This document shows, piece after piece, positions 1,624-58,093 of a DNA stretch of 64,000 nucleotides. The notes beneath the pieces are model-generated. The model was not told the DNA's origin, did no database searches, and saw only the letters and a program-made list of their open reading frames with translations. The stretch's first letter is position 1. The number at the start of each line of letters is the position of its first letter. Source of the stretch: Flavobacteriales bacterium (GTDB lineage: Bacteria > Bacteroidota > Bacteroidia > Flavobacteriales_C > GCA-002722245); contig JBMTCG010000001.1 of NCBI GenBank assembly GCA_049430665.1, positions 41,742-105,741 of the forward strand, in the 5' to 3' direction. A program made the translations under genes and the position numbers.

Positions 1624-2427
1624 TTGAAAAAACCGGTAACCGTTAAAAGTAAGAAAATACTGGGGATAATTAAGAAACAGCACGTTTTGCTGGTTCATGA
1701 AGAATCTCAAACGGGCACTGCTGTGCTCTTTTTTAAGTCGCGTTTGGTAAGTATTGTCTTGGTTTCTCTGGCTATTTTTCTAGTGATCTTTGCCTTGGCT
1801 TTTGTTATTTTGGCTTATACTCCTGTGCAGCAATATGTGCCCGGCTTTTTAAGCGATCACCAAAAAGAAATATTGCTAGATGATGCCCGTAAGACCGACG
1901 CTTTAGAAGAAGAGCTTAAGGGTAAGGAGGTGTATTATTCACATTTAGATTCGTTGATAGAAGAGTGGATTCCAAAGAACGATACTTTAAAAGGAGAGGT
2001 AAATGCGGCCAATATTTCGGTGCTGATGCCCGCCGAAGAGCAAATGAAAGCCATTAAAAACTTTTACTTCTATGCTCCGCTTCACGGCTTAATTTCTAAG
2101 CATTTCAATTATCAGGAAAAGCATTACGGAGTGGATATTGTATCGAAAAAAAACGAAGCGGTGAAAGCTACTTTAAATGGAAGAATAATATTGTCCACTT
2201 GGTCGGCAGAAACAGGAAATACTATTGTTTTACAACATTCAAACAATTTAATTTCGGTGTACAAACATTGCTCGGCCATGCTTAAAAAGGAAGGACAGTT
2301 TTGCAAGGCAGGCGAGGTAATCGCCATTATTGGTAATACGGGTGAAGATTCTTCGGGTCCGCATTTGCATTTTGAATTGTGGTTGAATGGAACGCCGTTG
2401 AATCCGGCGTCACATATGAGTTTTTAA
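1624..2427 (+). CDS. M23 family metallopeptidase (LytM/EnvC-like) with N-terminal TM anchor
   Basis: C-terminal motif GNTGEDSSGPHLHFELWLNG is the M23 zinc-site signature. A hydrophobic segment lies near the N-terminus. The exact start is uncertain. Confidence 0.7.
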   Translation: MKKPVTVKSKKILGIIKKQHVLLVHEESQTGTAVLFFKSRLVSIVLVSLAIFLVIFALAFVILAYTPVQQYVPGFLSDHQKEILLDDARKTDALEEELKGKEVYYSHLDSLIEEWIPKNDTLKGEVNAANISVLMPAEEQMKAIKNFYFYAPLHGLISKHFNYQEKHYGVDIVSKKNEAVKATLNGRIILSTWSAETGNTIVLQHSNNLISVYKHCSAMLKKEGQFCKAGEVIAIIGNTGEDSSGPHLHFELWLNGTPLNPASHMSF

Positions 2428-2636
2428 TGTTAAGCACGCAAATATTTTACTTGTTGTTTATTGCTGTTACGTGGTTTGGTAGCTATTCGTATGTGCAGAA
2501 GCAGATTATGCCGATACCTAAATTGCAAAGTATTTTTAAGGTGCAATGGCAAAAAACAGTAGCGACGTATTTGCTGTCATTAATTTTAGCACTGGCGATT
2601 ACTCAGTTGGCGATTTATAGCACGAAGTTTTTTTAA
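2379..2636 (+). CDS. small hydrophobic ORF, hypothetical
   Basis: 85-aa ORF with two hydrophobic segments that overlaps the M23 gene end. There is no homology I can name, so it may be spurious. Confidence 0.2.
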   Translation: MVEWNAVESGVTYEFLMLSTQIFYLLFIAVTWFGSYSYVQKQIMPIPKLQSIFKVQWQKTVATYLLSLILALAITQLAIYSTKFF

Positions 2637-2641
2637 GTAAA

Positions 2642-2741
2642 GGACAATAGTTCCTTCGGGGTACCTCAGGATGACAAACTGGGTAAGAGCTACCTTTAAG
2701 AGTGGTTGTCATCCTGAGGTACCCCGAAGGAACTATTGTCC
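2642..2741. repeat. perfect 36-bp inverted repeat (GGACAATAGTTCCTTCGGGGTACCTCAGGATGACAA / reverse complement) with 28-nt spacer; palindromic interspersed element, copy 1
   Basis: Arms at 2642-2677 and 2706-2741 are exact reverse complements. The element sits between convergent gene ends (2636 and 2753), so it likely also acts as a bidirectional terminator hairpin. A related copy is at 57207-57300. Confidence 0.8.
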
Positions 2742-2752
2742 TATACGTTAAT

Positions 2753-5071
2753 TTAAGGCGCTATTGTCTCAGGAATGGAATCTATTATAATATTCTCCGC
2801 TCCCACCGAATCAATTTCTACCACCACAGTATCCATTTTTGGAGCTTTCATTCTGCAGTTGTGTGGCACATCAATAGGGAAAGGCTCTTTAGGGAAAGGA
2901 GTAGGTTTTAGTTTGCTTTTCTTATCGGCAAATGCTTTTTGCATAAACAAACCAAAAATTGGCAAGGCGGTTTTCATACCTTCACCCGTTGCCGAGTTTT
3001 TAAAGTGTACACAACGGTCTTCCGCACCCACCCAAGTTCCACCAATCAATCCGGTGGTTACACCAACATACCAACCATCGGAATAGTTGTTTGAAGTCCC
3101 GGTTTTACCGCCCATTTGTGCGTTGTTGCCAAACAGAGCATATTGAAATAAAGCTTGCGATGTACCATTGTATTCTTCCACAGTTCCTCTTAGCATATAC
3201 GACATCAACCAAGCGGTTTCCTCTGTTAATGCTCTTTCTTGGGTAGAATTGAATCGTGCTATTTCTTCTCCTTTTTGATTCACGATGTGTGTAACCAAAA
3301 TAGGTTTAATTCTAAATCCGCCGTTGATGAAAGTCGCGTATGCAGTGGTTAATTCCAAGAGGTTAACATCATTGGTTCCTAAACCGATAGAAGGTACTGC
3401 CATTAACGGACTCTCAATTCCGCATTTTTTGGCGGTTTGGGCAACGTTATCCGGACCGCATTGTAGGGTTAATTGCACCGCTATGCTGTTAATAGAATTA
3501 GCCATGGCTCTGCGCAATGTAAGCGTATCGCCCGAGAAATGTCGGCTTGCATTTTTAGGTTCCCAAACGTGATGCACACCATCTTCATCGTATTCGTGAC
3601 GAACATAGCGGTCTATTCTTGTATCACATGGTCCGTTGCCTTGCTCGAAAGCTGTTGCATAAACAAAAGGCTTAAAGGTAGAACCCGGCTGACGTTTAGA
3701 TTGTGTGATATGGTCGAATTTCATGATTTTGTAGTTCCAGCCACCCACCCATGTTTTGATGTGTCCGTTTTTCGGGTCGAGAGTGAAGAAACCACAACGC
3801 AACATTTTTTTGTAATGCGCCAATGAATCGTAAGAACTCATCATCTTTTTGGTGAAGCCAGCATCGTGTGTAAATATTTCGCAAAGGTGAGGTTTGCGTA
3901 AGAAATATTGAATGGTATCTTCATTGTCTTCCCAGCGTTTTTTAAGTGCACGATACACATCTGTTTGTTTGATAGCATTTTCTAAATAGCCTGGTATCTC
4001 TTGTTTTTTGGCATCAACCCAAGGATTTTGACCAGCCCATTGCGCATCAAATTTACCTTGTAATGATTTCATGTGTTCTTGAACTGCTTCTTGCGCGTGC
4101 ATTTGCAAATTCAAATCAATGGTGGTGTAAATTTTTAATCCGTCGCTGTAAATATCATAACCGTTATCGCTACACCATTCTTCTAGTTCGCGCGCAACTG
4201 CGGCACGAACGTAGGGTACTTTGCAATCTTCTGGGTTTTCAACGTGATAATCTAGAGTAATAGGTTTGTCAATGGCTTTAGCGTATTCTTTATCGGTAAT
4301 TACGCCATGTTTTTTCATCAACGATAAAACAACATTTCTTCTTTCCAAAGATTTTTCGGGATGTAAAACCGGATTGTAAGTAGTGGTAGCTTTAAGCATA
4401 CCAATTAAAACAGCCGATTCATCGGCCGTTAAATCTTTTGGTTTTTTATTGAAATAGGTTTTAGCGGCAGTATTGATACCAAAGGCATTGCTGCCAAAAT
4501 CTACTGTGTTCATGTACAACAACAAGATTTCTTCTTTGCTGTAATTTTCTTCCAAACGTTTGGCCACCATCCATTCTTTAACCTTCACATTCACAGTGCT
4601 AATGCCTGGAATGTAGCTCAATAAACCTTTGTTTACTTTACGCATTTTAAAGATATTTTTGGCCAGCTGCATGGTAATGGTACTACTACCTCTTTTATCT
4701 CCTTTGATCATGTACCACAAAATGGCAATATTGGCTTTCCAGTCGATGCCGGTGTGCTCGTAAAAACGCACATCTTCGGTAGCTACCAAACCTTTGTGAA
4801 AAAGCGGATTGATGTCCTTATATCCTACAGAAGAGCGATTTTCACGAAAAAACTTGCCAATAACCTGACCGTCTTCAGCATAAATAACAGATGCAACAGG
4901 CAACTTAGGGTCTTTCAATTCTTTCACCGAAGGCATATTTCCCATTAACCATAGGAAATTGTGTTGAACAACTAAGTATAGAAATATGATGGTGAGAATA
5001 GGGTAGCGATAGCGTTTTTTCTTCCAAAGATAGATTCCGGCACTTTTAACTTTCTCCCAAATTTTCTTCAT
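2753..5071 (-). CDS. mrcA: penicillin-binding protein 1A (class A PBP: GT51 transglycosylase + transpeptidase)
   Basis: Transglycosylase motifs (ATEDVRFYEHTGID; GSSTITMQLAKN). Transpeptidase SxxK (QPGSTFKPFVYATA), plus SxN and KTG motifs (KTGTS). Confidence 0.85.
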   Translation of the reverse strand: MKKIWEKVKSAGIYLWKKKRYRYPILTIIFLYLVVQHNFLWLMGNMPSVKELKDPKLPVASVIYAEDGQVIGKFFRENRSSVGYKDINPLFHKGLVATEDVRFYEHTGIDWKANIAILWYMIKGDKRGSSTITMQLAKNIFKMRKVNKGLLSYIPGISTVNVKVKEWMVAKRLEENYSKEEILLLYMNTVDFGSNAFGINTAAKTYFNKKPKDLTADESAVLIGMLKATTTYNPVLHPEKSLERRNVVLSLMKKHGVITDKEYAKAIDKPITLDYHVENPEDCKVPYVRAAVARELEEWCSDNGYDIYSDGLKIYTTIDLNLQMHAQEAVQEHMKSLQGKFDAQWAGQNPWVDAKKQEIPGYLENAIKQTDVYRALKKRWEDNEDTIQYFLRKPHLCEIFTHDAGFTKKMMSSYDSLAHYKKMLRCGFFTLDPKNGHIKTWVGGWNYKIMKFDHITQSKRQPGSTFKPFVYATAFEQGNGPCDTRIDRYVRHEYDEDGVHHVWEPKNASRHFSGDTLTLRRAMANSINSIAVQLTLQCGPDNVAQTAKKCGIESPLMAVPSIGLGTNDVNLLELTTAYATFINGGFRIKPILVTHIVNQKGEEIARFNSTQERALTEETAWLMSYMLRGTVEEYNGTSQALFQYALFGNNAQMGGKTGTSNNYSDGWYVGVTTGLIGGTWVGAEDRCVHFKNSATGEGMKTALPIFGLFMQKAFADKKSKLKPTPFPKEPFPIDVPHNCRMKAPKMDTVVVEIDSVGAENIIIDSIPETIAP

Positions 5072-12727: not shown

Positions 12728-12801
12728 CTCTCCCTCTTGGACTTGAACCAAGGACCCTCTGATTAACAGTCAGATGCTCTAACCAGCTGAGCTAAGGAAG
12801 A
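12728..12801 (-). tRNA. tRNA-Asn (anticodon GTT)
   Basis: Manual fold of the minus strand gives acceptor TCTTCCT/AGGGAGA (one G-U pair), D-arm GCTC-AGCTGGTTA-GAGC, anticodon arm TCTGA-CTGTTAA-TCAGA (GTT), variable loop GGGTC, T-arm CTTGG-TTCAAGT-CCAAG and discriminator G. CCA is not encoded. A 5' UCC start occurs in E. coli tRNA-Asn too. Confidence 0.8.
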
Positions 12802-28861: not shown

Positions 28862-30181
28862 ATGGGTTGCAGCGGATGCGAAACAGGAAGAGGTAATACG
28901 AATGGCGTACCTACGGGGTGCGGCAATAAGGGTCAGTGTGCTGCTCAAGGATGCAATAAATTCAGCGTTTTCGATTGGTTAAGCAATATCTCGGTTCCTT
29001 CTTCAGAAGAGCCTTACTACGGTGTGGAAGTGCGATTTAAAAACGACAGAAAAAGTTATTTCTGGAATGTAGATAAATTGCCTTTGGCCATTGGAGATGC
29101 AGTAGCGGTGGAAGCTTCACCAGGTCACGATATAGGTACTGTTTCTTTAACTGGCGAACTCGTGAAATTGCAAATGAGCAAGCGTAATTTCCCAGAGAGC
29201 GAAATGAAAAAGCTCTATCGTAAAGCCAAACAAACAGATATTGAAAAATGGAATGAAGCTATTTCTTTAGAAAAAGCAACATTGCAGAAAGCCAGAAAAC
29301 TAGCCATCGACCTCGGTTTAGAGATGAAAATTGGCGATGTGGAATACCAAGGCGATCGTTCAAAAGCTACGTTTTTCTATACGGCTAATGGCCGCGTAGA
29401 TTTCCGTCAGCTCATTAAGCAATATGCTGAGCATTTTCGCATTCGTGTGGAAATGCGCCAAATTGGTGCCCGACAAGAGGCATCTAAATTGGGTGGCGTT
29501 GGTTCATGCGGAAGAGAATTGTGTTGCTCTACATGGTTAACCGATTTTAGAACGGTGAATACTTCCGCCGCAAGATATCAGCAGTTGTCGTTGAACCCTC
29601 AAAAGTTGGCCGGACAATGTGGTAAACTAAAATGCTGTTTGAATTATGAATTGGATTCTTACCTCGATGCAGTGAAAGAATTCCCTCAGGTTAACACCAA
29701 TTTGTTCACCAAAAAAGGAGAAGCTTATCAGGTTAAAACAGATATCTTCAAAAGAATCTTGTACTACGTTTATCGTGAAGATCCATCTGTTTTTCACGCA
29801 GTACCAGTGAGTCGCGTGAAAGAAATTATCGCCATGAATCGTGCGGGTAATCATCCTGAAGATTTATTGTTGATTCCTGTTGCTGATAAAACAACCAAGA
29901 AACCAGAACCCGACTATGCAAATGTAGTGGGTGAAGATGACTTAACACGTTTCGACCGCAAACGTGGTGGTGGCAACGACAACAGAAATAGAAATCGTGG
30001 TGGTGGAGGTGGTAACAACAATGGCAATCGCCGTCCGCAAGGGCAGGGTCAGCCGCAAGGCCCCAACCCAAATCGTCCGCGACCAAACAATAACGGTCCG
30101 CGACCGAACAACAACAGACCAAGACCAAACAACAACAATGGTCAGCGACCAAACAACAATCAACCGCCAAAGCAAGTTTAA
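28862..30181 (+). CDS. PSP1 C-terminal domain protein (RicT/YaaT-like) with Cys-rich N-terminus and low-complexity Asn/Pro/Arg-rich C-terminal tail
   Basis: The conserved PSP1 segment GSCGRELCCSTWLTDF and an N-terminal CxxC cluster. The tail reads RPRPNNNGPRPNNNRPRPNNNNGQRPNNN and is encoded by a DNA repeat at about 30060-30170. Confidence 0.7.
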   Translation: MGCSGCETGRGNTNGVPTGCGNKGQCAAQGCNKFSVFDWLSNISVPSSEEPYYGVEVRFKNDRKSYFWNVDKLPLAIGDAVAVEASPGHDIGTVSLTGELVKLQMSKRNFPESEMKKLYRKAKQTDIEKWNEAISLEKATLQKARKLAIDLGLEMKIGDVEYQGDRSKATFFYTANGRVDFRQLIKQYAEHFRIRVEMRQIGARQEASKLGGVGSCGRELCCSTWLTDFRTVNTSAARYQQLSLNPQKLAGQCGKLKCCLNYELDSYLDAVKEFPQVNTNLFTKKGEAYQVKTDIFKRILYYVYREDPSVFHAVPVSRVKEIIAMNRAGNHPEDLLLIPVADKTTKKPEPDYANVVGEDDLTRFDRKRGGGNDNRNRNRGGGGGNNNGNRRPQGQGQPQGPNPNRPRPNNNGPRPNNNRPRPNNNNGQRPNNNQPPKQV

Positions 30182-50645: not shown

Positions 50646-51305
50646 ATGGAAATTAATTTAACAGGAAAACCTGCTTTCAATTACGTAAACGTAGATTTAC
50701 AGCCAGGTGAAACCATTATTGCCGAAGCAGATGCTATGGCAAGTATGGCCGCCGAATTAACAATGGAAGCCAAAATGAACGGCGGATTTTTTGGCGGATT
50801 GGTAAAAAAATATGTGGGCGGAGAAAGCTTCTTCGTAAATCACGTTACCAACAACAGCAACGCTGTAAAACGCATTACACTAACACAACCAACACCTGGC
50901 GACATGAAAGTGCTAGAACTTAATGGCGACAGCTATTGCCTGCAAGGCGGTGCCTATGTGGCGTCAACTCCGGGAGTGAAATTGGGCGTTAAGTGGGCTG
51001 GTATCGCTTCTTTCATTGGTGGCGAAGGATTATTTAAACTTCAAGTTTCTGGCACAGGAAAAGTGATTTTTGGTGCTTACGGTGCTTTAATAGAAAAAGA
51101 AATTGATGGCGAATACATTGTAGATTCGAGTCATTTGGTGGGTTATACTCCCGATATGAAATTGAAAATGCAACTATCAGGAGGCATTTTCTCTAGCTTC
51201 TTTGGTGGCGAAGGACTCGTTACAAGAGTAGAAGGAAAAGGCAAAATCATCATTCAATCGCGCAGCGTGAGCGGACTCACAAAGTGGTTAAATAAATTCT
51301 TTTAA
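50646..51305 (+). CDS. AIM24/TIGR00266 (DUF124) family protein, paralog 1
   Basis: The GEsfF, GGEGLF and GG-GE motifs are spaced as in AIM24-family proteins. It is one of three tandem paralogs. Confidence 0.6.
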   Translation: MEINLTGKPAFNYVNVDLQPGETIIAEADAMASMAAELTMEAKMNGGFFGGLVKKYVGGESFFVNHVTNNSNAVKRITLTQPTPGDMKVLELNGDSYCLQGGAYVASTPGVKLGVKWAGIASFIGGEGLFKLQVSGTGKVIFGAYGALIEKEIDGEYIVDSSHLVGYTPDMKLKMQLSGGIFSSFFGGEGLVTRVEGKGKIIIQSRSVSGLTKWLNKFF

Positions 51306-51349
51306 CCCAGCTAACATTGAACTTTAAACATTAAACATTGAACTAATTT

Positions 51350-52027
51350 ATGAATGTTAAGATAGAAAAAGGTCCGGGTGCAGCAGCTGCAAAAGTAACC
51401 TTACTTCCCGGAGAATCATTCACTGCAGAAGCAGGTGCGATGATAGCCATGAGCGACAATTTACAAATTGAAACAACCACACATAAAAAGAATTCGCGCG
51501 GCATTATGAAAGCCATCAAAAGAATGGTTTCGGGCGAAAGTTTTTTCTTAAATCATTTCACTGCAGGTTCTCAAGGTGGCGAAGTGTATTTGGGTACAGC
51601 ATTGCCTGGCGACATGTTTACTTACGAATTGAATGGCGATAAACTAATCGTTCAGGCTGGTTCTTACGTAGCTTCAGATCATGATGTAAACATTGAATTC
51701 AACTGGCAAGGTTTCAAATCTTTGTTCTCTGGCGAAAGTGCATTTTGGTTGAGTGCCAGCGGAAGAGGAACAGTAATTTTAAATTCATTTGGCGCTATTT
51801 ATCCTATTGAAGTTGATGGCGAATACATTGTAGATACAGGTCACATCGTAGCTTTTCAAGAAAGCTTAAATTTCAGTATTTCAAAAGCGGGAACAAGTTG
51901 GATTAATTCTTATTTCGGCGGAGAAGGCTTAGTTTGTCGCTTCAAAGGAAAAGGAATAGTTTGGTGCCAATCGCACAACGATAACTCATTTGGATTTACT
52001 TTAACTCCTGGATTAACACCTAGATAA
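51350..52027 (+). CDS. AIM24/TIGR00266 family protein, paralog 2
   Basis: Same motif pattern (SGESFFLNHF … GGEGLVCRFKGKG). It is tandem to paralog 1. Confidence 0.6.
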   Translation: MNVKIEKGPGAAAAKVTLLPGESFTAEAGAMIAMSDNLQIETTTHKKNSRGIMKAIKRMVSGESFFLNHFTAGSQGGEVYLGTALPGDMFTYELNGDKLIVQAGSYVASDHDVNIEFNWQGFKSLFSGESAFWLSASGRGTVILNSFGAIYPIEVDGEYIVDTGHIVAFQESLNFSISKAGTSWINSYFGGEGLVCRFKGKGIVWCQSHNDNSFGFTLTPGLTPR

Positions 52028-52028
52028 A

Positions 52029-52703
52029 ATGGAAAACACATTCGAACATTATATGGAAGGACAACCCGATTACGCGTTGTTAACCGTTAAAATTCCTTCG
52101 GGAAAAACATTAAAAGTAGAGGCTTCGGCCATGGCTACCATGGATACGAACCTTAAAATGAAAACCAAGATGAAAGGCGGCTTGGGCCGTTTACTCACTG
52201 GCGAATCTATTTTCATTAACGATTTTACTGCCGAAAATGGTGATGCAGAAATTAAAATCGCTCCTTCTTCTCCAGGTGATTTGGTGCGCTATGCCATGAA
52301 TGGCAGCGAAACTTTCTATTTGCAAAGCTCGGCTTTTGTGGCTTCTGCTCCATCGGTAACCGTTAATTCTAAATGGCAAGGGTTCAAAGGATTTTTTAGC
52401 GGTGCTGGATTGTTCTTGGCGCAGGTAAGCGGACAAGGCGATCTTTGGTTCAACTCCTTTGGTGGAATTTTAGAGATAGATGTAAAAGATTCTTATGTAG
52501 TTGACACTGGAAATATAGTGGCGTTCACTGGTGGATTACAATACCAAGTAACGCGCTTTGGCGGATACAAATCTTTGTTCTTCTCTGGCGAAGGATTGGT
52601 GTGCCGATTTAGCGGTGAAGGTAAAGTGTGGATTCAAACGCGCAAACCTGGTCCAATGGCTTCCTGGGCTTATCCATTTAGACCAGAAGGCAAAAACAAT
52701 TAA
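52029..52703 (+). CDS. AIM24/TIGR00266 family protein, paralog 3
   Basis: Same motif pattern (TGESIFINDF … SGEGLVCRFSGEG). It starts 1 nt after the stop of paralog 2. Confidence 0.6.
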   Translation: MENTFEHYMEGQPDYALLTVKIPSGKTLKVEASAMATMDTNLKMKTKMKGGLGRLLTGESIFINDFTAENGDAEIKIAPSSPGDLVRYAMNGSETFYLQSSAFVASAPSVTVNSKWQGFKGFFSGAGLFLAQVSGQGDLWFNSFGGILEIDVKDSYVVDTGNIVAFTGGLQYQVTRFGGYKSLFFSGEGLVCRFSGEGKVWIQTRKPGPMASWAYPFRPEGKNN

Positions 52704-52711
52704 ACACTAAT

Positions 52712-55700
52712 GTGACTTCATCAAAAAGAAATATTGTAATAAGCAGTGGTTTGGCGATAGCTCTGCTGCTTATTACTTCTTTCCTCTATTTTCAACACAG
52801 CGCCAACAACCTAAGCACTTCTCTACAAGAAAATTTCGCGCAAGAACTTAGCGCACAGCAAAAATTACTACAACTAGAACTAAGTAATCTAGCCACTCAA
52901 AACAACAACGAAGAAGAACTGCTCAGCACCAAATTTTTAGCGTTCAAAAACTTGTATGAAAAAGAAGGTATAAGTCTCTTCATCTACAAAGATTCTTCCC
53001 TAGTTTTTTGGAGCAACAACGAAGAACCTATCGACAATTTATTATTGACCAAAGATGGATTTTTGAATTCGTTGGGTGGATTTTACGAGAAAATCTCTCT
53101 GCAAAAAAACAACAAAACTTATGTGGCCTTGCTCACCATTAAACAAGAGCATCAATTTGAAAATTCATTTGTAAACACCACCTTTCAAAAAAGATTTACG
53201 CTACCTAAAAACGTTGATATCACTGTAGATAATAAAATAAGTGACTTTCCTTCCTTATCAAATAATTACTTGCATCTCGATTTCTCAAAGGCCGAAAATC
53301 ACAGCAACATCACGGTTTCATTCATAGAATTTTTCGCAATTTTACTATTGCTTTTTGCGCTCTTCCACACAATTAAAAACACTGCGCTTTTCATCTCCTG
53401 TTTGCTATTACTAAGATATTTATTGCTCGAATTTCAATTTCCTTTTCATCTCTACGAAGCAACATTAATGGCCCCCGAATTCTTTGCTTACTCAACGTGG
53501 TTACCCTCTTTAGGAGATTTGTTGTTGCACAGCATTTTTGCTCTTACATTCATTCTGTTCATTGCCAAACAAGAAATTAAATTGAATGCAGCGCCACGAA
53601 TTACAACATTCCTTGTGCTCTTCGCGCTGCTATGTGCCTCCGTATTGCTTTCAGAAACCATTGAAGTTTTGGTTTTCAACTCGAATGTTGAATTGGATGT
53701 AAAAAAAGTATTCGCCCTCGATTTCTACAGTTTTACGAGTCTGTTCATCATCTTAATTTTAATGTATTCTTTCCTGCTCTTCGCCATTAAAATGAGCAAA
53801 GTATTGAAAGAAAACAATATTGAAAACAAGTTGATTGCAAGCAACATCATCATTTGTTTAAGTATCGCATGTATATTCTATTTTGTATTAGATGAGATAG
53901 ATGACATTTACACTTTGTTACTTATTATTCCTATTGCTGCTATACTGTTCTTCCGCACCTACAAAGGATATTCCACGTTTGAGCCAAGTTCTACGGTGTT
54001 TCTAATGCTCTTTATTTCCTTCTATGTTTCGGCCGTTTTAGAAAACAATTTAGAGCGCAAAGAAAAAAATTACCGCAAACAAAAAATATCGTTGATGTCG
54101 ACTAACCGCGACCCCATTGCCGAATACCTTTTTAACAGTGTTGTACCTAAAATTAAGAGTGATAGCATACTTTTTTATATCGACGATTCTTTGCTTACCA
54201 TTCAATATTTAAGAGAAAATTTCTCTGATAAATATTGGGATAAATACGATTTAAATGTGGTAAACAACGATGATCTTTCAAAGATGGAAATGATTTATCC
54301 TAATCTTTTTCATTCAGAAAATTTATCGAAAAATGGAGCCTATATTGCCGAATTTCCCTTGCCGGAAAATCACAAATTTCATGTATCACTCACCCCCAGA
54401 GATATGCCCGATGAGCCAGGATTTCCGGTACTTTTGGTAAACAAAGAAACCGAAAACAACACTTTAAATGCCGAATACTCATCAGCCAAATATTACGATG
54501 GAAAATTGGTGAACAATAATGGCGCTTACCACTACCCTTTGGCGCTCTCTTCTTTCACCAATAACAACGATGAAGAATTTCAATGGTTGGAAACAAATGG
54601 ATACAATCATTTGCTTTACCGAATCGACAAAAATTCAAGCATCATCATCAGCTTAGAATCGTGGGGCGTATGGAATTTATTTTCTGTTTATTCTTACCTC
54701 TTCATCTTGTTTTGCTTAATTGCACTAGTCTCTTTCTCACTCTCCTATCTATTTTCTCACTCTCCAGTTCAGCCATCGTTTAAAAACCGACTACAATTCA
54801 GTATGCTTATTTTGCTTTTTTTCTCAGCAGTAATGACGGGTGCTGGTTCGGTATATTATATAAGCAAACAATACAACAAAAAGAACGAAGAAGCCATTAC
54901 TGAGAAAATAAAATCGGTGAAGATGGGTGTAGAACGCCGACTCAAACGCAGAAATGGTTTTAGCGACAAAGAATTGATACAAGAAAAACTTGATAGATAC
55001 TCTAAAATATTTTTTAGTGATATCAATCTTTTCGATGCCAATGGAAGAATAATTGCTTCTTCACGCAACGAAATTTTTAGCGAAGGTTTACTGTCGCAAA
55101 ACATGCACCCACAAGCTTTCTATCAAATGCATTATTTGCACAAAACGCATTACACGCAAACCGAAGAAATCGAATCGATGAAATATCTATCGGCTTATAC
55201 TCCTTTTTTCGATGACAAAAGCAAAGTAATGGGTTACCTTAATTTGCCTTATTTCTCTCGACAAAATGAATTGAGTACAGAGATTTCGAACTTCTTGGTG
55301 GCCTTGGTAAACATTTACGGATTGTTGGTAGTATTATCACTTTTAGCTGCTTTAGTAGTGTCAAATTATATTACCAAACCACTTAGTATCATTCAAGAAA
55401 AATTGAAAAATATTTCATTAGGCAAACGCAACGAAATGATTCAATGGAGTGGCACTGATGAAATTGGAAGTTTGGTTTCTGAATACAATAGAAAGGTTTT
55501 AGAATTGAGCGAAAGTGCAGAAAAATTAGCCAAATCGGAACGTGAAGGTGCATGGCGTGAAATGGCTAAACAGGTAGCACACGAAATTAAAAATCCGCTC
55601 ACACCCATGAAGCTCAATGTGCAATATTTAAAACGTTTGTACAAGGATATTCCACAAGATGAATTTGAAGAAAGACTCACCAAAATTTCAAACAGTTTAA

Positions 55701-56221
55701 TTGAACAAATTGATACGCTCTCGAACATTGCTACTGAATTTTCGAACTTCGCGCGCATGCCCGATCCTGTTTTGGAAGAAGTAGATATGTTGAGTGTATT
55801 AGAAAATTGTCAGCAACTCTATTCCGATAAAGAGGAAGTAAAAATTAACATAGAAAATCACGCTAAAAATACTTTGGTAAAAGCTGATAAAGATCAAATG
55901 TTGCGCGTTTTCAATAACTTGGTGAAAAATGCCATTCAATCTATACCCGAGGATAGAAGCGGAAAAATTGAAATGATTCTTAAAAATTTGAACAACAAAA
56001 TTATCATTGAAATTCGCGACAATGGAAAAGGAATTTCTGAAGACGTTAAAGAGAAAATTTTTATTCCTAATTTCACAACGAAGAATTCGGGCATGGGGCT
56101 CGGACTCGCCATGGTGAAAAAAATGATAGAAGGGATTGATGGTAAAATTTGGTTTGAAAGCACCGAAAATATCGGCACTACATTTTATATAGAATTGCCA
56201 ACATTGAACATTGAACATTAA
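52712..56221 (+). CDS. very large multi-TM sensor histidine kinase (periplasmic N-domain, polytopic membrane region, second sensor region, HAMP, HisKA, HATPase_c)
   Basis: H-box AHEIKNPLTPM. N, G1 and G2 boxes (NLVKNAIQS … IRDNGKGI … GMGLGLAMVKKM). There are at least 8 hydrophobic helices. No receiver domain is present. Confidence 0.8.
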   Translation: MTSSKRNIVISSGLAIALLLITSFLYFQHSANNLSTSLQENFAQELSAQQKLLQLELSNLATQNNNEEELLSTKFLAFKNLYEKEGISLFIYKDSSLVFWSNNEEPIDNLLLTKDGFLNSLGGFYEKISLQKNNKTYVALLTIKQEHQFENSFVNTTFQKRFTLPKNVDITVDNKISDFPSLSNNYLHLDFSKAENHSNITVSFIEFFAILLLLFALFHTIKNTALFISCLLLLRYLLLEFQFPFHLYEATLMAPEFFAYSTWLPSLGDLLLHSIFALTFILFIAKQEIKLNAAPRITTFLVLFALLCASVLLSETIEVLVFNSNVELDVKKVFALDFYSFTSLFIILILMYSFLLFAIKMSKVLKENNIENKLIASNIIICLSIACIFYFVLDEIDDIYTLLLIIPIAAILFFRTYKGYSTFEPSSTVFLMLFISFYVSAVLENNLERKEKNYRKQKISLMSTNRDPIAEYLFNSVVPKIKSDSILFYIDDSLLTIQYLRENFSDKYWDKYDLNVVNNDDLSKMEMIYPNLFHSENLSKNGAYIAEFPLPENHKFHVSLTPRDMPDEPGFPVLLVNKETENNTLNAEYSSAKYYDGKLVNNNGAYHYPLALSSFTNNNDEEFQWLETNGYNHLLYRIDKNSSIIISLESWGVWNLFSVYSYLFILFCLIALVSFSLSYLFSHSPVQPSFKNRLQFSMLILLFFSAVMTGAGSVYYISKQYNKKNEEAITEKIKSVKMGVERRLKRRNGFSDKELIQEKLDRYSKIFFSDINLFDANGRIIASSRNEIFSEGLLSQNMHPQAFYQMHYLHKTHYTQTEEIESMKYLSAYTPFFDDKSKVMGYLNLPYFSRQNELSTEISNFLVALVNIYGLLVVLSLLAALVVSNYITKPLSIIQEKLKNISLGKRNEMIQWSGTDEIGSLVSEYNRKVLELSESAEKLAKSEREGAWREMAKQVAHEIKNPLTPMKLNVQYLKRLYKDIPQDEFEERLTKISNSLIEQIDTLSNIATEFSNFARMPDPVLEEVDMLSVLENCQQLYSDKEEVKINIENHAKNTLVKADKDQMLRVFNNLVKNAIQSIPEDRSGKIEMILKNLNNKIIIEIRDNGKGISEDVKEKIFIPNFTTKNSGMGLGLAMVKKMIEGIDGKIWFESTENIGTTFYIELPTLNIEH

Positions 56222-56235
56222 ACTTTGAACTAAAT

Positions 56236-57198
56236 ATGAAATACACTATTGGAATCGACATTGGAGGAACCAACACAGAAATTGGATTGGTAGATGAAAA
56301 CGGACACGTTGTAGCTTACAAAAACTTATCTACAAAGGCTTATCCGGTTTTTGAAATGTTTGTAGATACTTTATCTGATGAAATTAAAACCATCATCAAC
56401 GCCAACAAAGACAAGGAATGTTTAGGTATTGGTATTGGTGCGCCAAACGCGAACTATTACAACGGTATGATTCAAGAAGCCGTGAATTTGTTGTGGAGAG
56501 GTGATTTACCATTGAAAAAAGAAGTAGAAAAACGAACAGGCTTAAGCGTTTATGTTACCAACGATGCGAACGCTGCTGCTATTGGTGAAAAACTATTTGG
56601 TGCTGCTAAAGGTATGCGCGATTTCGCTGTTATTACTTTGGGTACAGGCGTGGGCTCTGGCATTGTAGTAAATGACGAAATGGTGTATGGTCACGATGGA
56701 TTTGCAGGTGAGCTAGGACACATCATCATTGAAGAAAACGGACGCTTATGCAACTGCGGAAGATACGGCTGTTTGGAGACTTACGCTTCTGTTACGGGCT
56801 TGGTAAATACTGCCCGACAAATGGCAGAAAACTATACAGGTAATTCAACTTTAAAAGCTGTAGGCAAGGAAAATATCACAGGTAAAATGATTGGTGATGC
56901 TGCGCGTGATGGCGATGAATTGGCAATTGAAATTTTCGATTACACTGCAAGAAAATTAGGAATAGGCTTGGCAAATTTGGTTGCTATCACAAGACCAGAA
57001 GCCATAATTTTATACGGTGGTATGGTTAAAGCCAACGAAGTATTGCTTGTACCAACAGAAAAATACATGAACGAATTCATGCTACACATGTGGAAAGGAA
57101 AAGTGAAATTGTTGAAATCAACTCTGCCTGGTCCGAACGCCGCAATTGTTGGCGCCGCTGCATTAGCTGCTGAAGAAGTTAGTAAAGGAAGAAAATAA
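56236..57198 (+). CDS. ROK-family glucokinase
   Basis: N-terminal IGIDIGGTNTEIGLV and the ROK zinc motif CNCGRYGCLETYAS. Confidence 0.8.
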   Translation: MKYTIGIDIGGTNTEIGLVDENGHVVAYKNLSTKAYPVFEMFVDTLSDEIKTIINANKDKECLGIGIGAPNANYYNGMIQEAVNLLWRGDLPLKKEVEKRTGLSVYVTNDANAAAIGEKLFGAAKGMRDFAVITLGTGVGSGIVVNDEMVYGHDGFAGELGHIIIEENGRLCNCGRYGCLETYASVTGLVNTARQMAENYTGNSTLKAVGKENITGKMIGDAARDGDELAIEIFDYTARKLGIGLANLVAITRPEAIILYGGMVKANEVLLVPTEKYMNEFMLHMWKGKVKLLKSTLPGPNAAIVGAAALAAEEVSKGRK

Positions 57199-57206
57199 AT
57201 AAGTAG

Positions 57207-57300
57207 GGCAATAGTCCCGTCGGTTTAAGGGTGACAACTACTACTCAAGTAACACTTACCCAGTATGTCATCCTGAGGTACCCCGAAGGAACTATTGTCC
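57207..57300. repeat. second copy of the palindromic interspersed element (right arm 57266-57300 exact; left arm degenerate)
   Basis: CTTACCCAGTATGTCATCCTGAGGTACCCCGAAGGAACTATTGTCC matches copy 1 (2642-2741) over 46 nt with one mismatch. The left arm GGGCAATAGTCCCGTCGG…GGTGACAA is a diverged partner. Confidence 0.7.
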
Positions 57301-57319
57301 TGCACATCAAACCACAATT

Positions 57320-58093
57320 ATGAGCTACACCAATATCATATCACAAATTGCGGATGGAATCTCCACCATCACCATCAACCGTCCGCAACAACTCAATGTG
57401 CTCAACAAACAAACCATTGAAGAGTTAAACTCCGCATTGAATGAATTAGAAAATAATGCGTCTGTGCGTGTTGTCATCATCACAGGTGCTGGTGAAAAAG
57501 CATTTGTTGCTGGTGCCGACATCAAAGAATTTGCTCAATTCTCTACCGAACAAGGCAAACAACTGAGCGCCAAAGGTCACGAATTGTTGTTCGATAAAGT
57601 CGCCAATTTCTCCAAACCTGTTATTGCAGCCATCAACGGATTTGCATTGGGTGGAGGGTTGGAATTAGCCATGGCTTGTCACATTAGAATTGCCTCTGAA
57701 AATGCACGTATGGGCTTACCTGAAGTCGGACTTGGCGTTATCCCTGGCTATGGCGGAACACAGCGCTTACCTCAACTCATTGGCAAATCAAAAGCCATGG
57801 AAATGATTCTCACAGCCGAAATGATTGATGTTAAAATTGCATTGCACTACGGCTTGATAAATCGCGTAGTTCCATCAACAGAATTACTCGCAAAAGCGAC
57901 CGACATCGCAAAAAAAATAATGAAGAATTCTCCTATGGCTTTAACGTCTGCTATAAAAGCGGTAAATGCCAATTATACTGATGGTCTAAACGGTTTTGCA
58001 GAAGAAATAAAACTCTTTGGTGAATGCTTCGGCACCAAAGATTTTGAGGAAGGAACCACTGCATTTTTAGAAAAAAGAAAAGCGAATTTTTAA
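57320..58093 (+). CDS. enoyl-CoA hydratase/isomerase family protein
   Basis: Crotonase fold motifs AAINGFALGGGLELAMACH and the catalytic Glu context. Confidence 0.85.
   Translation: MSYTNIISQIADGISTITINRPQQLNVLNKQTIEELNSALNELENNASVRVVIITGAGEKAFVAGADIKEFAQFSTEQGKQLSAKGHELLFDKVANFSKPVIAAINGFALGGGLELAMACHIRIASENARMGLPEVGLGVIPGYGGTQRLPQLIGKSKAMEMILTAEMIDVKIALHYGLINRVVPSTELLAKATDIAKKIMKNSPMALTSAIKAVNANYTDGLNGFAEEIKLFGECFGTKDFEEGTTAFLEKRKANF

Follow-up and report, generated by a model that had tools for sequence, protein, structure and literature searches.

A lineage-specific family of mosaic palindromic repeats in an uncultured freshwater clade of Flavobacteriales

Is a long, perfect palindrome between two bacterial genes a terminator that belongs to its site, or is it one member of a dispersed repeat family? 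The question is raised by positions 2642 to 2741 of a 64,000-nucleotide stretch of Flavobacteriales DNA (here, the window), where two 36-nt arms enclose a 28-nt spacer (2678-2705). A first-pass annotation of the same DNA had described the arms as exact reverse complements, and they are; beyond them, complementarity extends weakly to 2632-2751, at 93%. The left arm of this copy (copy 1) matches the family consensus arm, as derived from 88 arm ends. Three occurrences of a 34-nt arm core lie in the 64-kb window, two of them in copy 1 and the third at 57267-57300, compared with none expected from 100 shuffles; a search of the whole window for further copies or variant arms beyond copy 1 and the second copy (copy 2) found none. 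The 46-nt core singled out earlier is correct as read on the minus strand of copy 1; copy 2 departs from it at 1 nt. The coordinates of both copies and of their neighbors are listed in Table 1. As detailed below, they belong to a previously undescribed, lineage-specific family of non-coding palindromic repeats in an uncultured freshwater Flavobacteriales clade. It is an ordinary kind of bacterial junk or regulatory repeat and no new type of system; the family itself is new.

Table 1. Window positions of the two palindromic copies, their parts, and the adjacent genes
Feature	Positions	Strand	Sequence	Remarks
Copy 1, left outer flank	2631-2641			Weak match to reverse complement of outer consensus TACACATCAAA
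Copy 1, left arm, A-long type	2642-2677		GGACAATAGTTCCTTCGGGGTACCTCAGGATGACAA	Exact reverse complement of 2706-2741
Copy 1, spacer, class a	2678-2705	- strand reads	CCACTCTTAAAGGTAGCTCTTACCCAGT	Family CCAC...AGT polarity
Copy 1, right arm, A-long	2706-2741		TTGTCATCCTGAGGTACCCCGAAGGAACTATTGTCC	
Copy 1, right outer flank	2742-2752		TATACGTTAAT	Abuts PBP1A stop codon (2753-2755, - strand)
Class A penicillin-binding protein (transglycosylase + transpeptidase), PBP1A	2753-5071	-		Converges on copy 1
ROK-family sugar kinase	56236-57198	+		Gene upstream of copy 2
Copy 2, left arm, variant "B-module" type, 32 nt	57206-57237		GGGCAATAGTCCCGTCGGTTTAAGGGTGACAA	
Copy 2, spacer, class a	57238-57264	+	CTACTACTCAAGTAACACTTACCCAGT	
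Copy 2, right arm, A-long	57265-57300		ATGTCATCCTGAGGTACCCCGAAGGAACTATTGTCC	
Copy 2, right outer flank	57301-57311		TGCACATCAAA	Fits family outer consensus
Enoyl-CoA hydratase	57320-58093	+		Gene downstream of copy 2

Exact scanning of one genome per GTDB species for the arm motif CATCCTGAGGNNNCCCGAAGGAAC returned 52 loci, all of them in four related metagenome-assembled genomes (MAGs), three labelled Chryseobacterium (gleum) and one listed as a groundwater "Flavobacteriales bacterium". The Chryseobacterium labels are doubtful, because the closest named relatives of PBP1A are only ~50% identical and come from Cytophagales; other records name the same lineage "Flavobacteriales bacterium". The same scan of metagenome contigs found 68 further loci in freshwater, estuarine, and brackish samples. 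Many of the arm-motif matches are located at contig ends, as expected of multicopy repeats. Instead of only two loci conserved in distant relatives, the outcome that had been named as speaking for a conserved terminator, related genomes and metagenomes supply at least 120 additional loci (individual loci are cited below by their L numbers). Neither BLAST searches of plasmid and phage collections with the element nor a pattern scan of IMG/VR produced a match. Rfam searches with the whole window (gathering thresholds) and with the copy 1 region (by E-value) matched the element only to generic miRNA-hairpin models, far below gathering. A full-text literature search for the arm sequence retrieved unrelated primer matches only, and a literature search for the peptide-like string FDKLRMT, which may come from similar Bacteroidetes repeats, gave no match.

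The tabulated occurrences include 89 two-armed and 43 single-arm copies. Two-armed copies are 88 to 125 bp long and contain no open reading frames (ORFs) except for chance overlaps. The 30-nt arm core ATAGTTCCTTCGGGGTACCTCAGGATGACA is near invariant across the family, a conservation that looks inflated because the sample was ascertained by an exact 21-nt arm pattern, so that one arm per locus was picked by the search itself. Stem positions 7 to 35 pair in 93 to 100% of 73 distinct copies. The outer arm tip is variable (GGGC, GGAC, GAAC, etc.), the tips being less conserved than the inner arm. Spacers range from 16 to 61 nt and form class a (~27 to 30 nt), which is the commonest among the 89 full copies, class b (31 to 38 nt), class c (22 nt), and class d (42 to 44 nt). 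All of these classes have the same CCAC...AGT polarity, and the two orientations are found at a ratio of 37:44 across the family.

The partner arms of apparently single matches are mostly recurrent variants rather than products of decay. These include a short arm that lacks 3 nt (CCTGAGG[A/C]ACGAAGG) and the B module, in which the arm core is swapped for a 16-nt mini-palindrome, such as the perfect CCCGTCTGCAGACGGG, with CGTC or AGTC as alternatives. B modules are combined with each other in B/B palindromes at L064/L065 and at L009, where the palindrome adjoins an A/A copy, and with A arms in the A/B hybrid elements of L096, L128, and L071. The B-type palindromes (L064:9857-9979, L065:5828-5950, and L009:896-1014) have 29-nt perfect arms (CATGGCGCCAGTCTCCAGACTGGTGAC...) with a mini-palindrome in each; in L009, the distance to the A-type copy is ~40 nt. 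Tail-to-tail dimers are found at one site (L021/L082/L098). A single arm is located in frame inside a histidine kinase gene (L025:7061-7096; also L033, L104, and L125), where it contributes VILRYPEGTNAL to the linker joining the HisKA (residues 82 to 146) and HATPase_c (residues 195 to 304) domains. The family is a mosaic in which three arm variants (A-long, A-short, and B-module) and at least four spacer classes are freely combined.

Past the arms, a weak outer consensus TACACATCAAA extends to about +11 or +12, after which the information content falls to background. At the junction, position 0 is A in 92%, position +1 is T in 95% (84/88), and position +2 is A in 65% of the ends. The two outer flanks pair no better than shuffled controls and were not kept as stem. 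A flank like the right one of copy 2 is missing at L064, where a different palindrome holds the site, so the flank travels with the element. The outer flanks are part of the element and not of its target.

Copy 2 spans 57206-57300, in the gap between the co-directional ROK kinase and enoyl-CoA hydratase genes. It had been reported as a second, partly degenerate copy at 57207-57300; it is real and intergenic, it starts at 57206, and its left arm is a recurrent variant and not a decayed one. It should rather be called a hybrid copy with a variant arm. The left arm retains the outer GGGCAATAGT and inner GTGACAA ends around a replaced core, and similar replaced cores recur in the partner arms of L012, L039/L066/L089, L071, and L096/L128; the copy 2 orthologue in L060/L061 has a normal arm at this place. 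The right arm matches the copy 1 arm in 35 of 36 positions, with an identical 34-nt core, and its outer flank ends 8 nt 5' of the hydratase ATG (57320).

The gap between these two genes is occupied orthologously in the window, in the MAG CAYORT01 (L060/L061/L017), in the groundwater MAG (L057), and in the L058/L059 lineage; CAYORT01 is the nearest family-bearing MAG, with ~79% identity over window positions 51018-58093. The window itself belongs to none of the four family-bearing MAGs; a hydratase 100% identical to that of the window is on record for a MAG named "Flavobacteriales bacterium". In all, a palindrome is found at this site in five lineages, with different subfamilies and spacers and, in one of them, a different palindrome. 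Copy 2 combines one variant arm with a class a spacer, L057 has two short-type arms and a class c spacer, and L058 has two arms with common symmetric substitutions and a unique 49-nt spacer. In L064/L065, with the hydratase 88% identical, the gap contains the different, B-type palindrome with 29-nt arms (-87 kcal/mol), and in L062/L063 (74% identical) it contains only a small hairpin. As the copy 2 site is occupied orthologously in several species, part of the family is old, and it may owe its persistence to selection or recombination instead of to recent transposition.

The same site provides an example of spacer inversion. The spacer of copy 2 is homologous to that of L060 and is inverted relative to L061/L017, and the inversion between L060 and L061/L017 (L061:9919-9945) distinguishes two assemblies with 100% identical flanks. 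Inverted spacers were found at no fewer than six orthologous loci, with the pairs defined by both flanks. Spacer-only inversions between identical or nearly identical loci are also seen in L031 versus L050, L034 versus L084, L092 versus L123, and L051 versus L131. At flank identities of 88 to 94%, the spacer class itself is swapped (L023 versus L093/L120, L041 versus L070/L121, and L015 versus L088). The simplest explanation is inversion through recombination between the arms and replacement through gene conversion from other copies; the inversions may be a real flip-flop or, in principle, an assembly error.

Gene neighbors, taken from crude ORF calls, could be assigned for 63 non-redundant two-armed copies, of which 31 are located between convergent genes, 31 between tandem genes, and 1 between divergent genes. 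As background, these loci contain 70 convergent, 298 tandem, and 73 divergent gaps. The arm end follows the upstream stop codon at a median distance of 17 nt, and in tandem contexts the downstream start codon comes after a median of 40 nt; copies also turn up within an operon-like cco/hemN cluster, between its genes. The orientation of the spacer shows no relation to transcription direction (16:11). Copies are thus located almost exclusively downstream of genes, directly after stop codons.

Copy 1 had been placed in a 116-bp gap between convergent genes. That length holds only if the small ORF ending at 2636, whose stop codon (2634-2636) is overlapped by the left outer flank of the element, is a gene; this ORF has no Pfam match, and the relatives' loci L134/L135 and L053 contain no DNA homologous to it. 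With the small ORF discounted, the gap extends from the stop codon of an M23 peptidase gene at 2427 to the PBP1A stop codon at 2753. In relatives with 87 to 89% nucleotide identity, the PBP gene is followed by 11 nt and a convergent PMT_2 glycosyltransferase gene (L053:2339-2351), and the M23 peptidase gene is followed by a hairpin, a T-run, and a convergent atpG gene (L134 to L137; L134:3671-3760). Their homology to the window ends at the M23 and PBP stop codons, neither of the two sites has the element, and the ~210-nt segment with the small ORF (2428-2636) has no counterpart at the L134 or L053 sites. This shows that copy 1 is located at a lineage-specific synteny breakpoint (window 2427-2752) and that its site is not conserved among relatives. 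The gene neighbors differ too, and its absence from the relatives is not a clean empty site. The M23/atpG gap (L134:3672-3759) has a canonical bidirectional intrinsic terminator, with an A-run, a GC hairpin (AAGCCT..AGGCTT), and a T-run; ordinary intrinsic terminators thus coexist with the palindromic repeats in this clade.

Copy 1 is predicted to fold into a hairpin of -80.4 kcal/mol on the plus strand and -78.2 kcal/mol on the minus strand (z of about -14.5), and none of 200 shuffled sequences was as stable. The copy 2 hairpin is weaker (-42.8 kcal/mol; z, -5.5), and the family hairpins fold at -62 to -87 kcal/mol. No T-run or U-tract was found after the hairpin on either strand of either window copy, a scan gave no terminator-like site there, and no consensus promoter was found at either of them. 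The earlier remark that the structure is far longer than an ordinary terminator is accurate: it is a long hairpin with no U-tract. In tandem contexts it cannot be a strong terminator, because the downstream start codons follow so closely. Covariation in the stem is modest, symmetric variants being better read as subfamily markers, and in a test of G-U wobble asymmetry the transcribed strand was not enriched (18 GU versus 35 AC). With so little covariation and no strand asymmetry, the stems do not demonstrate selection for an RNA hairpin.

How, then, did the copies arise? The reading of locus-specific, conserved bidirectional terminators, or of a structured non-coding RNA gene, in which the copies would only look alike and nothing would have spread, draws on the palindromes at the orthologous copy 2 site in five lineages, on the placement of the elements exactly where terminators sit, and on the relative with an ordinary hairpin and T-run at the equivalent M23 3' end. 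However, a near-identical 30-nt arm core and common spacer classes recur at more than 120 unrelated loci, the U-tract and above-threshold Rfam matches are missing, spacer orientation is independent of the transcription direction, and copy 1 is absent in close relatives; copy number and shared sequence largely refute this reading, which we consider highly improbable. A classical MITE derived from an insertion sequence (IS), mobilized in trans by a DDE transposase acting on its terminal inverted repeats, would fit the 100- to 125-bp non-coding body with such repeats, its multicopy and lineage-restricted occurrence, and the ..TA and TA/TG.. that usually flank the 100-bp body on its left and right, respectively; a TA duplication, as in IS630/Tc1-like elements and Correia, would be possible. 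Yet no 2- to 9-bp direct repeat rose above the control at offsets 0 to 19 on either side of 76 copies, and a TA duplication is not separable from the element, since TA belongs to the conserved junction and conservation runs to +11. The window and 133 loci (~1.1 Mb) yielded neither an IS-like repeat of >300 bp nor a gene with an arm on each side, and no transposase or IS with arm ends turned up in this family-bearing DNA (MAGs are often without IS copies). Two candidate cassettes were rejected: the two copies 610 nt apart in L100 (L100:340-1158), viewed as a "REPtron", bracket only a frame-broken, small lipoprotein-like ORF and no transposase cassette, and the pair of copies in L109 lies to either side of ordinary cco genes. 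The L100 pair is located just downstream of the end of an SmpB-like gene. Moreover, the inner arm is more conserved than the termini, the opposite of most MITEs, and tail-to-tail dimers, single units, and hybrid dimers are unexpected from cut-and-paste of a fixed element. This origin is in our judgment unlikely. Among the loci, which were chosen for carrying the element, there was no precise empty site, only partial deletions (L015/L022 and L130/L019).

An origin of the REP/BIME type, in which the 36-nt arm would be the mobile unit of an HUH tyrosine transposase similar to RAYT or TIRYT that acts on single-stranded DNA and the palindromes would be head-to-head dimers, agrees with the organization of the REP and TIR families (PMC3733652), namely, their dimers, singletons, heterodimers, hybrids, intragenic units, and downstream location, as well as with the junction consensus GTAGGG and the perfect mini-palindrome CCCGTCTGCAGACGGG of the B module. 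The latter is the only mini-palindrome within a unit and is confined to the rarer B module, whereas the 47-nt A unit alone has no self-structure (-6.5 kcal/mol; z, +1.27; 187 of 200 shuffled sequences fold as well). The GTAG tag is weak, with the completing G at 37 of 88 ends (~42%), the sequence does not fit the GGGGWSAS motif of TIRYT-associated repeats, and a tblastn search with IS200 TnpA, an approximate query of low sensitivity and so a weak test, found no match in the window or the 133 loci. We rate this reading as rather more doubtful than a MITE origin. With no target-site duplication or parental IS detected, no stem-loop in the unit, and no firm GTAG tag, the element is filed as neither MITE nor REP. 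Accordingly, the first-pass label of a mobile MITE/REP-like family stands as far as a dispersed, intergenic, palindromic family with at least 120 further loci is concerned; its assignment to MITEs or REPs and its mobility are not established, and "MITE/REP-like" is acceptable as a description and unproven as a mechanism. As no transposase, target-site duplication, or precise empty site was found, mobility is something that we infer and do not show. Four other classes were rejected from the sequence: integron attC sites (no R or L boxes in the element), CRISPR (no arrays), a hammerhead-like core (no CUGAUGA/GAAA core), and uptake sequences.

The account that we favor, and regard as probably correct, is that of mosaic, clade-specific palindromic repeats that have spread in trans, recombine with one another, and are kept at gene 3' ends as RNA hairpins. 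The units would have spread by a trans-acting mechanism, such as non-autonomous transposition of the MITE or REP-dimer type, and would remain only at places where they do no harm or are of use, right after stop codons. Co-transcription with the upstream gene would produce a very stable 36-bp RNA hairpin, which may serve as a barrier to 3'-exonucleases, as a processing site (e.g., an RNase III target), or as a leaky, weak terminator; such a role would account for copies being tolerated or retained at gene 3' ends and intercistronic sites and nowhere else. Recombination and gene conversion between copies and between arms would keep the units alike and shuffle the spacers. Of all this, the pattern is what the data display; spread, retention, and recombination are the steps that we infer. 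A bolder, and improbable, variant is that the arm core ATAGTTCCTTCGGGGTACCTCAGGATGACA is the recognition site of a dedicated trans-acting protein of the clade that copies the units, assembles them at gene 3' ends into head-to-head and tail-to-tail dimers, and returns repeatedly to the same intergenic sites, i.e., a Bacteroidota analogue of REP/RAYT with non-hairpin units, possibly co-opted as a 3'-end formation signal. If such an enzyme does exist, REP/RAYT-like biology would extend to Bacteroidota.

Among the known systems, REP dimers (BIMEs) and TIR repeats (Di Nocera et al. 2013; PMC3733652) are similarly mosaic, with unit variants and few conserved types of 20- to 100-bp spacers. They, too, occur mostly as head-to-head dimers, with rare tail-to-tail dimers, singletons, hybrids, and occasional in-frame intragenic units, are found downstream of genes and between convergent ORFs, and as dimers can fold into one long hairpin. 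The present family differs from them in its A unit, which, unlike the 20- to 40-bp imperfect palindrome of a REP, forms no stem-loop by itself, in its weak consensus for the GTAG (or CGTC) that marks one end of a REP unit, in that no RAYT or TIRYT was found in the ~1.1 Mb analyzed, in its Flavobacteriales host, and in sharing no sequence similarity with described REPs. With MITEs, which measure ~70 to 300 bp, it shares a short, non-coding body and long terminal inverted repeats, of 36 nt compared with the typical 15 to 30 bp. Correia/NEMIS of Neisseria and other bacterial MITEs such as RUP and ERIC/IRU, for which PMC3733652 gives background, are likewise ~100 to 150 bp long, mostly consist of long inverted repeats, and are multicopy and intergenic; they are co-transcribed with neighboring genes into long RNA hairpins that can be RNase III substrates or affect mRNA stability, and their subfamilies differ internally. 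In contrast to them, the present arms are longer (36 nt, perfect) and better conserved in their inner part than at their tips, sequence similarity is lacking, and the TA duplication, IHF site, and promoters of Correia, of which the duplication has been demonstrated, could not be shown here. Rickettsia palindromic elements (RPEs) resemble the family in being able to sit in frame in protein-coding genes, but they are longer, typically intragenic, and from an unrelated lineage, whereas intragenic copies are exceptional here (one orthologous site). In the small hairpin-loop inversions of plastids, a segment between short inverted repeats likewise flips between close relatives, with high homoplasy and no functional strand preference; those inversions are a mutational phenomenon at unique hairpins, whereas the present case is a dispersed repeat family.

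Small palindromic repeats (REP/BIME, ERIC, Correia, RUP, and RPE) have a bearing on termination, on mRNA stability, on how genomes rearrange, and on how well they assemble. Almost all of the families described so far come, to our knowledge, from Proteobacteria and Firmicutes; here, the same phenomenon is documented in an uncultured freshwater lineage of Flavobacteriales. Its distinctive traits are the interchangeable arm and spacer modules, the inversion and exchange of spacers, and the occupation of one intergenic site by different palindromes in different lineages. In practical terms, these repeats break metagenome assemblies, as seen from the many copies at contig ends, and can give rise to spurious small ORFs; they could also serve as a strain-typing marker for the clade.

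Two further features of the window may be mentioned. The sole above-threshold Rfam match in it is a tRNA gene on the minus strand (12728-12801). At 30064-30159, a short imperfect direct repeat is present in three 30-nt units (CAACCCAAATCGTCCGCGACCAAACAATAA-like), with irregular start-to-start spacings of 21 and 45 nt, and is probably a repetitive coding segment.
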